NCBI GenBank assembly: GCA_964016885.1
Contig: OZ024748.1
Span: 28,334,001-28,398,000, forward strand
Direction of reading: 5' to 3'
From: Eledone cirrhosa
Taxonomy: Eukaryota
Length of the DNA stretch: 64,000 nucleotides
Positions 9,925 to 55,169 of the stretch are shown here, piece by piece. Position 1 is the stretch's first letter; every line of letters starts with the position of its first letter. The translations under genes and the position numbers were made by a program. The notes beneath the pieces were generated by a model. The model was given only the letters and a program-made list of their open reading frames with translations. It was not told the origin of the DNA and ran no database searches.

Positions 9925-10113
9925 AAAATCTGAAGAGGGCTTGATAAGGATAATATATATATAAAACCGTAGAGCAAATATTTATTAAAATAACAGATTA
10001 AAGTTTAAGCAAAGAATCTTCAGGATCTAACAGGATCTTCTGAGTTTCAGAAGATCCCGTTAAGGGTGAAAGCACTGATCCTTTGCTTAAACTTTAATCT
10101 GATATTTTAATAA
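9925..10113. mobile_element. Miniature head-to-head PLE terminal-repeat inversion (HHR family A)
   Basis: 'ttattaaaataacagattaaagtttaagcaaag' (from 9982) is the reverse complement of 'ctttgcttaaactttaatctgatattttaataa' (to 10113); left arm carries an extra tail. Confidence 0.7.
10043..10093 (+). ncRNA. Type I hammerhead-like motif, CAGAAGA core (family A)
   Basis: agttt/aaact helix I; CAGAAGA; ccc/ggg helix II; GAA; agca/tgct helix III; predicted triplet CUU. Confidence 0.6.
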
Positions 10114-10229
10114 TTAATATATATATATATTCAAACAAATTGAATAATATTATTAATATTCGAGAAACTCAGATTACATTTATTGTATTCAACCATGTAG
10201 AGCGATAAAACTATTTGTTATATATACAC

Positions 10230-10470
10230 ACTTTTCCATGCTTGCATGGTTGGGTTGGATGTGCCTTTTTCAGCACAACCTCCTTCAGCTTGTTGCATAC
10301 TTTTGTCATCTCCTCTGTGTGGATCAGCTCTCCTCGCTTCCACCCAGGTCTTCTATCTGCTGGAGCTTCCCTTCCACTGGGATAATATACATGTCTCATT
10401 GGCCTTATGGGTTTTCAAGCAATGATACAATGTGTTGGTGGAGCTTTTGATCTCTGCCAGGAATTATGAG
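10230..10470 (-). mobile_element. Decayed RTE LINE 3' end fragment
   Basis: Minus-strand 'PVEGK...KTWVEA' resembles the RTE C-terminus; end resembles the RTE 3'UTR at 22560-22600 ('ccatgc.agcatggaa'). Confidence 0.5.
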
Positions 10471-10667
10471 CTGTGTCTTATAATATGTATATGTACTTGG
10501 TGACAACCCTGATATGTCCTCCACAGTGTTACATTATATAAATAGTAGCAAAATATTTTTCACAAAAAATTCTCAACCAATGTTCATAAAATTTGTGGCT
10601 ACAACATGGTTGTACAGTAAAAAGAAAATGGGGAAAAAAAACAACTTTTGATATTCAATATAAATGT

Positions 10668-11250
10668 TCACAGGTGATAGAAGGCAGGAGGCTGAATTAA
10701 GTGCAAGAATTGCAGAAGCTGGTGCAGTAATGTGCTAGCTTCAGAAGGAGGAAGTTGTAAAATCCAAATTCGAAGGTGTAGAAGCCAAACTCATTATCTT
10801 CAATTTGGTTTTCGAGCCAACCCTTACCTATAGTCATGAATCTTGGGTAATGACTGAAAGAATACGATCGCGAATACAAGTGGCTGAAATGGGGTTACTC
10901 CGAAGGGTGTTTGGAGTAATGTTACTTGATAGAATGCATAGCTTGGAGATCAAAGAGTCACTCCAGGTAGAGCTGCTACTTCTCCAAATTGAAAAGTCAC
11001 TTCTCTGATACTATGGGCATGTGGTTAGATTGTCTAAGGAAAGAATGGACAGATTTTGAGTAAAACCAATTGGCAGGAGACCCAAGGGTAGACCCCGAGC
11101 AAGATGGTTGGATAACATCTATGAGCTTGGCTGGTCTCACTTGGGGATTCTGTTGGAGATGGTTGCTTCAGACAGGACTTGCTAGAAGGAGTGTTTAAGG
11201 ACACTGCTCCCACAATCCTTTCAAGAATAAGTGGACAAAGAAGAAGACTT
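10668..11250 (+). mobile_element. 5'-truncated RTE LINE fragment (C-terminal region)
   Basis: ORF 10805-11008 'PTLTYSHESWVMTERIRSRIQVAEMGLLRRV', then 'YGHVVR' and 'GRRPKGRPRARWLDNI' motifs with stops. Confidence 0.85.
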
Positions 11251-12493
11251 GATTTTACTTCATACCAAGTCTTCTGCCTATATAAATATAATAAAGAGTT
11301 ATAAATAATTATGCAATAGCTTTTTTATACTTCTGTCTCTCCTTTTTTTCTAAACATAGCTGCTTTTATTTGTGCCTGTTGCCATTGAGACCTACAGTGT
11401 CCTCAGTTTTCCAACTGCCATTTTCCTCCCCAACATCAGGATGAAGGCATCACTTCCCTGGGGAGCTGGTGTAGCTGAGATGCACTGCCCATCCAATGGT
11501 GTAGAGTTTCAATGCCTCCCAATTTTCTTCCTTTTTCTTTCTCTCATCCTGTTTGTCAATATATTCAACTGGAGCTAATCTTGTCTCTTGATTTCACTTC
11601 TCAATTATGAAACTTCTTCACTGATTTTGCTCAACAACACCGTCATCATCATCATCATCATCATCATTGTACATAGTATTAATATTAGTATTAAGGGTAG
11701 TGGTTGGTGGTTTGGCTGGCAGAATTGGTAGTGTAGTGTAAAAAATCATACGTTGTGGTATTAAATTACATCCCTTAATGTTACTGTAATCCTACTTGTG
11801 TCAACTTTGCTTATCATTCTTCCAGCAGGTGGGTAAAATACAATACTGGTCATGTGCTGGGATCAGTAAAGTTGATATTTTTCTTCCCCCACCCAAAACA
11901 GCTGGCCTTGTGCCAATGTTAGAAATATTTATTATTATTATTAATGTGTTCCAGGTCTTTTCATTCTGAGTTCAAATCCAACTGAGGCTAGCTTTGCCTT
12001 TCATCCTTACAGGGTTGATAAAATAAAGTATTAGTCATGCACTGGGGTCGATTTAATCGACCCCCCCCCCCCCTCCCCCCAATTGCTGGCCTTGTTCCTA
12101 AATCAGAAACCATTATTATTATTATTATCATTATTATTATTATTATTATTGTCAAGGCAGTGAATTGTTAGTGTCAAACAAGATGCTTTGCAGTATTTGT
12201 TCTGGCACTTTACACTCTGTTCACATCCCATTAAGGTTGATAAAATAAAGTACCAGTCAAGTACTGGGTTCAATATAATCAACTTTTCCCTTTTCTCTCA
12301 ACATTTTTTTCTTTGTGCCTATGTTAGAAATTATTATTATTATTATTATTGTTGTTGTTGCTGTTGCTGCTGCAGCAGGTGTATGCAGTTGTAGCTAATG
12401 TTTGGTCTATGGAACTTTCAAGTTGCTTTCAATCTCCCATTGGAACAAGTTGTATTAAAACTACCATTCTGTTTCTCTCTGAATTATAAAATA

Positions 12494-52227: not shown

Positions 52228-52918
52228 CTAATGGATACAATTTACACTACTAGAACCTTTAGGTTTATAATAAAAGTAAGAATTTGAAATGGCGTGGGGG
52301 CAAGAAGAGAATATCTCAGACTTTCTATTAAGTAAGGTTTCCCTAGAGAAAATTATAGAGTGGGTCTCAAGGATACAGAGATTACAAAATTTAGTATGTG
52401 TTGAAAGGTTATTAGAGCGTGCTACTATTCGCCAATTAAGGCTATATGGTATATTAGCCCCCTTAAGATCCCAGATATGGTGTGCTAAAGAAGTAGAATT
52501 CTTAAACCTAACATGTTTAAAATTAGAGATATGAGAATTAAACCCAGTCTTAAAAGTGTTAGATGTAGAGCCTATATATGTACTATTAGAGTTTAATTCT
52601 GGGTTTAATTCTCATATCTCTAATTTTAAACATGTTAGGTTTAAGAATTCTACTTCTTTAGCACACCATATCTGGGATCTTAAGGGGGCTAATATACCAT
52701 ATAGCCTTAATTGGCGAATAGTAGCACGCTCTAATAACCTTTCAACACATACTAAATTTTGTAATCTCTGTATCCTTGAGACCCACTCTATAATTTTCTC
52801 TAGGGAAACCTTACTTAATAGAAAGTCTGAGATATTCTCTTCTTGCCCCCACGCCATTTCAAATTCTTACTTTTATTATAAACCTAAAGGTTCTAGTAGT
52901 GTAAATTGTATCCATTAG
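52228..52918. pseudogene. Divergent pair of Naiad GIY-YIG C-terminal fragments
   Basis: Minus 52228-52598 'STYIGSTSNTFKTGFNSH...'; plus 52599-52918 '...STSLAHHIWDLK...CNLCILE...LLNRKSEIFSSCPH'. Confidence 0.9.
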
Positions 52919-53780
52919 CTGCTATATTCCCTTATCTTTTTAGTTTAGGTTCATTTTGTTTACCACCATCATTATCATTATTATTATTATTGGTTTTTAA
53001 CAGCTTTTCATTCTAGTTTTCATAGTCCTTTGGCTACCATACCATATCTATATTATATTTTCACTATTAACACCTTATGAGTTTATATCTGATTATATAT
53101 TTTATTTTATATTATTTTATTTTATTTTATTTGGATTCTTCTTTGGATAATTAACCCCCCCCCCCCACACACACACACACTTGTCATTCGCCCCTTCAAA
53201 TATACTATAATTATATTCAATTCCCTTTTATGCTCCTTTCTATTGTATAATACAGTATATTGATTATGATTTTATGCTCCTTCGTATCCGCCATACATTT
53301 CTTTTTTCTGTCCCCATTGGCCTACCATAATTATACTTAAAGTCCGTTTATTAGATAATGTTATTCAACTGATAGTTGAATATTTCATTCTTTCCACATA
53401 TTTTTATAGCGATATCTTAAACTTTGGAGTTTTTGATTACTTAAACCATAGCTAATTTTGTATTGACTTATTATGTATTTTAAATACTTTCAATATTAAT
53501 TAATTTAATAGGGTTTTCTAGTCATTTATCCGGGTTTGTTTCCTAAATTTTTTACTTAACTGCATGTGACACCTAAGTAAATACTTTTGTTTTTGTTTTT
53601 CGATTTCCGGTTGATTTTATTTATATATTTATACTACCGTGCGTAGTTTTCTGTCTGGTTCTTATTCACTTATTCATAAATGTTTGTCCACCAACCACGT
53701 AATTATGTATATTATACTATGTTCAATATTTTATATTGAAATTTTTATATCATTCCACGCTTTGTAAACGTACTACTGAT

Positions 53781-53857
53781 TACGGGCTCGATAAAATAAA
53801 GTACCAGTAATGCACTGGGTAATTGCTGGCCTTGTGCCTAAAGTAGAAACAATTATT
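53781..53857 (+). mobile_element. SINE 3' fragment inserted in the right palindrome arm only
   Basis: Absent from the mirror site (~51355-51375). Confidence 0.92.
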
Positions 53858-54768
53858 TACCGATTATTAAATGTACCATTATGTTATCTTAAATTTTGTA
53901 AATTCTGTAATATGTTTATACTTTTATAATTTTTGTAATGTTTGGATAATATTTATTTACACCAATTGTAGAGAAATGTGACCTCCATCTGTTTTCTTGC
54001 AATGGTTTTGATATTTTTCCAACATAATTTAGTTCTGTACAATATTTTTTCTCACCCGGTCTGTAACTCTATATGATTTGTTAAGTTATATGCCATTATA
54101 TTAAAATATTGTTATTATAGTATTATTGTAACATTTATATTGTTTGTGTAAATTAACCGGATATTATCTATTATATAATTATATAATTATATAGTTTATT
54201 ATAATATATTATATGTTTACTTTTAATCATTTCTTCTTCACTTTATACTGTGATTAATATATGAATTATATTTTTATTTTCATTTCTATTTTTATTTTTA
54301 TTCTTCTTCTTCTTATTATTCTTATTATTATTATTATTATTATTTATATTTAAACTCTTAATAAGGGTTAGTTTGTGCTTGTATTGATGGAAATGTGTAT
54401 TGATATATATGTATATATGTGTACATATGTATATATATATATATGTATATTGGGCCTTTTAATATCGTTTTTATTATTTTTAATATTATTATTATTATTG
54501 TCATTATCAATTATATTATTTTATATTATATTATATTATATTATATATAGTACAATAATTCCCGCTCTATATCACCACCTTTGTTTAGCTTTAGTTTTTG
54601 CATTGGACTATATTTGTAATATGGTTCAAAATGTTATTCACTTCCTTAGCAATTTTTACTTGATAATTTTTACCCGATAATTTTCCTTATGTTTTATTGT
54701 ATGTACACTCCATATTCTTCTGAGTTTTTGGCTTGTATTGGCCGATAGTGCTTCTTATAGCTTTAATT

Positions 54769-54806
54769 GCCCTGATGAGTCCTTAATAGGACGAAACATT
54801 GTTGGC
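54769..54806 (+). ncRNA. Canonical minimal type I hammerhead ribozyme
   Basis: gcc CTGATGA gtcct taat aggac GAAAC att GTT ggc, then AATAAA. Confidence 0.88.
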
Positions 54807-55169
54807 TAATAAAGACTTTTGATGTATTGAAGGCTTCTTTGGTTTATTTTCATAATTCTTCGGCTCTGTTTAATTACATTGAGCTATACCTTTACTGTCA
54901 TTTCTATAATACGAAGAGGGTGTTTAACTCCAACACACTCTAGTATTTTAATTCTTATATATATATATATATATATATATATATATATATATATATATAT
55001 ATATATATATATATATGTGTATTATATATATATATATATATATGTAGGAGGTGAGTTTTATTGTAGTACAATAAAGCAATGCAGATATCGGATAAGAAGC
55101 ACTCTACAGTTTGTAGGACTGGAGTATACATAATATATAAGATCAAAAGATGGTTAAAAGAGTTCCATG

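Follow-up and report, generated by a model that had tools for sequence, protein, structure and literature searches.

The window analyzed here is a 64,000-nt stretch of Eledone cirrhosa DNA (contig OZ024748.1, positions 28334001-28398000) from a genome of 3.0 Gb; it has 33% GC, is rich in (TA)n and contains many outward-facing inverted repeats. Penelope-like elements (PLEs) form inversions of this kind, and a reading of the DNA from its letters alone (the sequence-only reading) had proposed that a small hairpin, present in one arm of each inversion, marks the point at which the other, shorter arm ends. All eight hairpins cited in its support, as well as a GCTC half-motif at position 9975, were located in the window (Table 1). 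The distances between the end of the short arm and the motif, given as 6, 8, 10, 12, 4, 5, 4, 6 and 6 nt, held when counted as the first divergence in arm alignments inspected by eye, and every short arm of the cited cases continues into (TA)n or (CT)n(TA)n.

Below a covarying upper stem, the motif has a 2-nt bulge that begins with U, on the 3' side, and then a lower stem of 4 bp. The earlier description as a small hairpin captured the RCUC/GAGY lower stem and missed the bulge and the upper stem. The ninth case, taken for a GCUC half only, is instead a decayed full hairpin, since copy L172 keeps the 3' half intact. Two exceptions had been named; family C indeed lacks the motif, while the palindrome at 32530-32894 has a decayed long-loop version at 32518-32438 on the minus strand, recognized by eye. 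The attribution to families with a hammerhead ribozyme stands for F1, F2 and F3, where the ribozyme core is intact; in the window copies of cases 4-8 the core is mutated or cut off. Strict compact motifs occur 10 times in the window, compared to a mean of 1.7 (maximum 6) in 30 block shuffles. No Rfam family was assigned to the hairpins of 9 loci (read-through copies or foreign elements), and none at the hairpins among the top 150 of 220 matches in the window, which were microRNA models on simple repeats.

On their sequence motifs, compared with section 11 of Craig et al. (2021; PMC8557442), the hairpin-bearing elements are PLEs of the Hydra clade, with a C-terminal endonuclease (EN). F2 is a young family with an intact 830-aa frame in many copies; Pfam gave no match to this frame, and its domains were therefore read from motifs. 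By eye against the same section, protein P0001 has a CxCX5C linker and CxxC and CxH around conserved E and N, with no CCHH. It carries RWR and DKT, and its homologue P0081 has RWK and DKT, the Hydra signature being RWK with DKT in place of DKG. The 2.5-kb open reading frame (ORF) of F2 is followed by a 3' region of ~2 kb, making the element longer than the size (generally <3 kb) given for Hydra elements in the parts of Craig et al. covered here. F4, F6, F7 and an F3-like family read through into related ORFs. Hydra elements also have a canonical hammerhead in the pseudo-long terminal repeat; in F1 copy L077, Rfam Hammerhead_1 matched at 29.1 bits, under the gathering score of 34, and variant hammerhead cores are found in F2, F3 and F4. 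The elements insert into (TA)n, and a comparison with empty sites (3 matches of 130, 2 of them informative) showed a shorter pre-existing (TA)n tract in 2/2. A Naiad ORF, previously suggested as test enzyme, is the wrong choice for elements of a C-terminal-EN clade: here a hammerhead is present and the EN lies at the C terminus, whereas Naiad has an N-terminal GIY-YIG domain and no canonical hammerhead. No relative of the profile was found among solved structures. The linker motif marks family C as Neptune-like. A hairpin after its tail in 1/5 matches was left uncounted as probably nested, because what follows this hairpin corresponds to the tail of another family. Asparagine-rich inserts occur in ORFs of both kinds, at residues ~485-690 of P0001 (Hydra) and at the family C N-terminus in L216 (Neptune-like); similar inserts are described for rotifer Penelope elements in the part of PMC3846280 covered here.

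Of 134 short/tail inversions, 87 have the lower stem and represent 18 families, and the upper stem was scored in these families, chosen by the lower stem alone; base pairs were counted by script anchoring, and loop lengths differ among the hairpins. In the register with a 2-nt bulge, 52/54 cells were paired, compared to a permutation mean of 32.7 and maximum of 43 (10,000 permutations), and other registers failed. The 18 families are related and thus not independent events. One of them has a 1-nt bulge. Across them, upper-stem G-U pairs outnumber A-C by 9 to 1, and sense RNA is therefore favored as the form in which the motif acts.

A blind set of 140 stretches of 10 kb (1.4 Mb, regularly spaced or adjacent) yielded 106 candidate inversions found by script. 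Of these, 91 had a tail of 25-260 nt and were retained; they formed 33 clusters. A strict motif started at -6 to +20 nt of the short end in 47/91 copies and 14/33 clusters, with 43 of the 47 starting at -1 to +7. With one representative per cluster, the strict motif was present in 9/33, compared to a mean of 0.017 (maximum 1) in 300 shuffles. The motif was found on the sense strand in 10 cases and on the antisense strand in 1, and a later interval gave 0. Motif-negative clusters include family C, pairs of short interspersed nuclear elements (SINEs) and other repeats. Related tails are found in clusters 5, 9, 11 and 23 (e.g., L058, L168, L068 and L044), where the bulge is 1 nt long or the lower stem is altered, and one 33-nt tail family among them has no recognizable hairpin.

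The same bulged hairpin recurs at the other end of the tail. In full-length F2, the 5' untranslated region (5'UTR) opens with the tail, and a second bulged hairpin (H2, the first being H1) starts right where tailed copies stop. H2 was found after the tail end in F1, F2, F6, F7, F8 and the F3-like family, that is, in 6/7 families with a read-through copy; the upper stem is minimal in F8, and the loop is long in the F3-like family. F3 itself reads through into the 5' half of H2 in 9 of the first 100 matches (by eye). Since the read-through searches for F7 and F4 (273 and 133 matches) required the 5' half-motif, only the 3' half counts there as a test for H2; F7 passed it and F4 did not. Short arms stop before H1 and tailed arms before H2, and the tail is thus the H1-H2 interval: the spacing is 71-167 nt, and tail length equals it. 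The predicted clustering of 3' ends just upstream of the hairpin was borne out, in that 243/246 microsatellite-bounded ends in seven families lie at most 20 nt 5' of one of the two hairpins, while the tail interior contains none; 36 further alignment ends without a microsatellite were left uncounted, and the F4 loci are biased to tailed copies. Both 3' ends lie ~0-16 nt from a hairpin. The motif had been proposed as an element of the tail-less initiation site, and it is tied to the tail-less end across the genome and in other organisms; because a second copy marks the tailed end, it is not specific to that site.

Divergent pairs, counted in unbiased or body-selected loci, comprised 56 short+tail, 2 short+short, 0 tail+tail, 2 read-through+short and 6 unclassified combinations (66 in all), and by eye the F1 genome listing showed short+tail in 16/16 inverted pairs. 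The outer flanks of one F2 inversion (L114/L115) start with the same degenerate TA sequence, inverted and not a direct target duplication. Tandem units were observed in L280 (1050-1750, minus-strand count), each with a hammerhead, H1, tail, an H2 variant and the first ORF codons; close-spaced matches near 279229177 (C4) and 216011852 (C2) are tandem units as in L280, with a unit of ~190-225 bp. Arrays of the L280 type are retrozyme-like and retain exactly the proposed cis core. Tandem arrays in L148 and L134 (periods ~311 and 592 bp, respectively) close in the short arm; by eye a long-loop hairpin is present in the L134 array and none in that of L148.

Junctions of F2 carry added repeats. The F2 short end has CUCU, and by eye extra CT units precede (TA)n at ~61/99 short ends, with longer duplications at 4 more (the last letter of the search pattern shut out tailed copies); F1, which is without CUCU, had extra CT at 0 of ~41 short ends (by eye). 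Within the local set of seven families, CT followed 16/26 F2 and 2/29 F4 short ends and no other terminus. Similarly, F3 tail ends have extra CA beside a YAYACA template. The added repeat matches the template, which indicates slippage or stuttering at priming and favors initiation by reverse transcriptase (RT) over a cut. Two other origins of the (CT)n were considered and are disfavored. A target-derived tract finds no (AG)n on the opposite flank of the CT-bearing F2 inversions (0/7; background 117/4738), and expansion after insertion does not fit tailed arms with the same CTCT, which are unexpanded. The same junctions bear on a motif acting as DNA, recognized in a single-stranded intermediate by the GIY-YIG EN, which would cut adjacent to it and so resolve the insertion. 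Such a role would be in keeping with the proposal in Craig et al. (PMC8557442, in the part covered here) that the tail arises via EN-mediated resolution, and with the requirement of the tail for EN recognition (Pyatkov 2004, as cited in the part of Frangieh et al., PMC11167929, covered here). Template-matched repeats at the junction are, however, a signature of synthesis, loops of ~3-65 nt exclude a duplex site of fixed spacing, and G-U pairs far exceed A-C, leaving a DNA-level motif improbable.

Relatives of these elements were recovered from other organisms. A metagenome search with a single protein found no relative, and a search with an alignment of 57 proteins found 99 loci from metagenome contigs and contigs of metagenome-assembled genomes (MAGs), presumably animal DNA. 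The strict motif was present in 31/47 upstream regions (null 0.87; antisense 2) and in 22/45 regions downstream of a hammerhead (null 0.66; antisense 6). At least two hairpins occurred in 24/34 non-redundant upstream regions when a one-pair upper stem was allowed (null 0.32), mostly near -94 to -134 and -34 to -69 from the ORF start, with a few extra matches that appear spurious. Covariation is seen at three of the four lower pairs, ACU comes next in 44/58, and a bulged GCAC/GTGC form of the hairpin is also present. Among 54 distinct hairpins, chosen by lower stem and ACT, the first, second and third upper pairs formed in 54, 41 and 38, compared to permutation maxima of 48, 37 and 33, and the bulge was U-led in 54/54. 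Terminated copies stop 1-5 nt 5' of H1 or H2 in 10/14 listed comparisons, some of them redundant. Some Hydra-clade PLEs (L367-L389) come from contigs assigned to bacterial MAGs or symbiont assemblies, where they most likely represent misbinned DNA of the animal host.

These data bear on two further explanations. A self-priming antisense model has been proposed for head-to-head PLE palindromes (PMC3846280, in the part covered here), and the hairpin might be a boundary that stops synthesis on an antisense template; the motif is sense-specific both in the tails of this genome (10 vs. 1) and in other organisms (31 vs. 2), as is the hammerhead, and we consider an antisense template extremely improbable. 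The hairpins could instead be protein sites for ribonucleoprotein assembly or translational control, with ends falling nearby merely through pairing of AU-rich strands with (TA)n. H2 lies 34-75 nt upstream of the ORF start in other organisms, and TA microhomology does guide the choice of junction. AT-rich stretches within the tails and upstream are nevertheless unused, with 0/246 ends inside the tail at spacings of 71-167 nt, and such a role appears quite improbable.

We therefore return to an RNA element that acts in reverse transcription. Hydra-clade PLEs carry two conserved bulged 5'UTR hairpins, insertions end just 5' of either, and each hairpin probably anchors the RT for an internal start, in line with the earlier suggestion, drawn from sequence, that the hairpin may position the RT. 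A precedent named in the sequence-only reading was confirmed: a lizard PLE has in vitro two internal RT starts that bound the tail, with both target strands extended (PMC11167929). In the mechanism that we propose, a transcript would run through the pseudo-long terminal repeat (pLTR) into the next 5'UTR, with protein bound at H1 and H2. The endonuclease would cut both strands of a (TA)n target, and each DNA 3' end would pair with the AU-rich single strand directly 5' of one hairpin. The anchored RT might then stutter on dinucleotides, adding (CT)n or (CA)n, before elongating, and two truncated complementary DNAs (cDNAs) joined at their far ends would leave inverted arms that face outward. The arm asymmetry would be explained most simply by a single RNA with two RTs. 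More speculatively, one RNA may load two RT protomers on the twin hairpins and prime both strands of a double-strand cut simultaneously, the tethered enzyme adding telomerase-like repeats such that Hydra-clade elements write and lengthen their reputedly favored microsatellites, and the hairpin may be a portable 20-nt address for internal starts; we put this forward as a tentative possibility.

Both termini and the sense bias would be explained equally well if the hairpins served to direct RNA processing, with a nuclease of the host or the element cutting 5' of H1 or H2 and the RT priming at ordinary RNA 3' ends, with which stuttering is also compatible. Two cuts alone, however, do not impose one short and one tailed arm. 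Furthermore, extension of the RNA 3' end left the main product of the anole PLE unchanged, so that initiation there is internal (PMC11167929; a different clade), and we regard processing as rather unlikely.

Several observations weigh against the anchoring role. RT binding and initiation at the hairpins are only predicted in the Hydra clade. Folding of the hairpins is weak (z -0.9 to -3.1), and in just 3/8 does the minimum-energy structure agree with the bulged model. The strict motif is missing from 19/33 blind clusters and a relaxed motif from 14, and family C has a tail without the hairpin. H2 of F4 is without RCUC/GAGY and has just an unbulged GCAC/GTGC stem, though the tail of this family ends sharply. 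The offset shifts with TA microhomology: in F4 both -12 and -5 occur, and some F3 tail ends touch the stem base. Mapped on a tree of the proteins, the two sides of the first upper H1 pair change eight times each and the pair as a whole eight times; independent pairs are too few for significance (4/4 for this pair, p = 0.125), and the signal for the third H2 pair is weak. The uncounted ends mentioned above add to these points.

Table 1. Coordinates of hairpins, element parts and other PLE features in the window
Feature	Position	Strand	Remarks
F1 hairpin H1	54863..54884	+	GCTC-TGT-loop-ACA-TT-GAGC
F1 type I hammerhead	54769..54806	+	predicted cut ~59 nt upstream of H1
F1 tail	54857..54956	+	stops 6 nt short of H2 position of read-through copies
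F1 short arm	50343..51365	-	stops 6 nt 5' of H1, then (TA)n
Hydra-type endonuclease remnants	52228..52918	.	centre of F1 palindrome
F2 hairpin H1	33321..33354	-	
F2 tail	33194..33362	-	stops just 5' of H2 position of full-length copies (H2-H1 = 167 nt)
F2 hammerhead variant	33402..33450	-	CCGAAGA core; annotated by eye
F2 ORF	35414..37083	-	Hydra-clade RT and C-terminal GIY-YIG; 5'-truncated, frameshifted
F2 short arm	37125..38050	+	stops 8 nt 5' of H1, then (CT)27(TA)n
F3 hairpin H1	24835..24855	-	end of partner arm 25417
F4 hairpin H1	28144..28162	-	partner arm end 32265; tail end near 28101
F4-like copy (case 5), hairpin	24679..24697	-	upper-stem mismatch; arms 24700-24760
F6 hairpin H1	46030..46053	+	short arm end near 45920
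F7 hairpin H1	55101..55125	-	short arm end near 57023; tail end near 55043
F7 Hydra-type endonuclease remnant	55557..55934	+	
F8 hairpin H1	30825..30850	+	short arm end 30624
F9 decayed hairpin	9939..9975	-	3' half altered, but intact in genomic copy L172
Decayed long-loop hairpin	32438..32518	-	in tail of 32530-32894 palindrome; by eye vs cluster 12
Further hairpin	62374..62409	+	in a tailed copy flanked by (TA)n tracts; partner arm not visible; absent from the sequence-only reading
Family C, Neptune-like PLE	25862..27764	+	RT, CX4CxxC linker, GIY-YIG; motif-less tail

Other repeats in the window include a short element flanked by (TA)n at 62200-62448, whose tail bears a hairpin and whose 5' part, in reverse complement, is similar to a family in L167. 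Two broken copies of a long interspersed nuclear element (LINE), at 19689-21841 and 40777-43316, are ~94% alike, retain endonuclease and RT remains and are presumably RTE-like. An abundant 190-bp SINE-like repeat is found at 14579-14729, 15694-15881, 16701-16890, 39994-40178, 45222-45405, 59478-59667 and elsewhere, and one copy interrupts the F1 arm near 53780-53858.

The twin RNA element tied to both PLE termini is a real, clade-wide feature; it is apparently undescribed, and the function proposed for it is likely. A search of the literature, with subscription papers and Repbase notes outside its scope, found no description of the hairpin or of stuttering by PLEs. The one-sided tail and inverted arms of PLEs have been known for two decades and, to our knowledge, no cis signal had been put forward to explain them. 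A duplicated, covarying hairpin at both ends makes the question of tail and arms directly testable through a 20-nt element. The hairpin is also a marker for annotating Hydra-clade ends and non-autonomous arrays, and a stutter at initiation would be a candidate source of compound microsatellites.

Among known systems, the Hydra clade as described by Craig et al. (2021; PMC8557442, in the parts covered here) has the same ORF motifs, hammerhead, (TA)n targets, inverted or partial-tandem structure and one-sided tail, with tails of 30-40 bp rather than the 71-167 nt found here. The portion of its main text covered here has no match for 'hairpin' or 'stem-loop'. In the consensi covered from its File S7, we recognized the hairpin by eye clearly in Hydra-2_Amil and Hydra-2_Ajap and twice in Hydra-1_Ajap, partially in Hydra-1_Amil and Hydra-1_Crog, and not in Hydra-1_Obim; published consensi with the hairpin thus include coral and sea cucumber. 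Four 9-nt strings of the 3' half gave 7 matches in the covered part of that supplement: 4 fell on Hydra hairpins, and 3 were isolated matches in consensi of Naiad/Chlamys, from which tails may be absent. The lizard element PAc (Poseidon of Anolis carolinensis), for which a dimer is predicted (Frangieh et al. 2024, PMC11167929), differs in belonging to another clade and in starting inside the ORF, in an AC-rich stem-loop. The text of that paper describes no repeated positioning hairpin, though its figures may show structures. By eye, the PAc template has an unbulged UCUC/GAGA stem 8-15 nt past the start, which is a lead only.

On the sense RNA, the hairpin lies 3' of the junction, which is not the arrangement of a telomerase-type boundary. 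In stringent LINEs (L2, CR1), the RT recognizes a 3' stem-loop and slips on a terminal repeat at initiation, and this stem-loop is upstream of the start and is copied. The hairpin here, by contrast, is downstream of its own start and excluded from that cDNA. PLE RTs are sister to telomerase, and an RNA anchor combined with a stutter at initiation therefore bears on the origin of template definition and repeat addition. Telomerase RNA and the DRT10 non-coding RNA have boundary stem-loops beside a short template, related RT lineages and repeat addition by realignment, according to the sections of PMC12632851 covered here; there the stem-loop is 5' of the template and sets the stop, whereas the Hydra-clade hairpin is 3' of the start and duplicated, with a stutter followed by processive copying.

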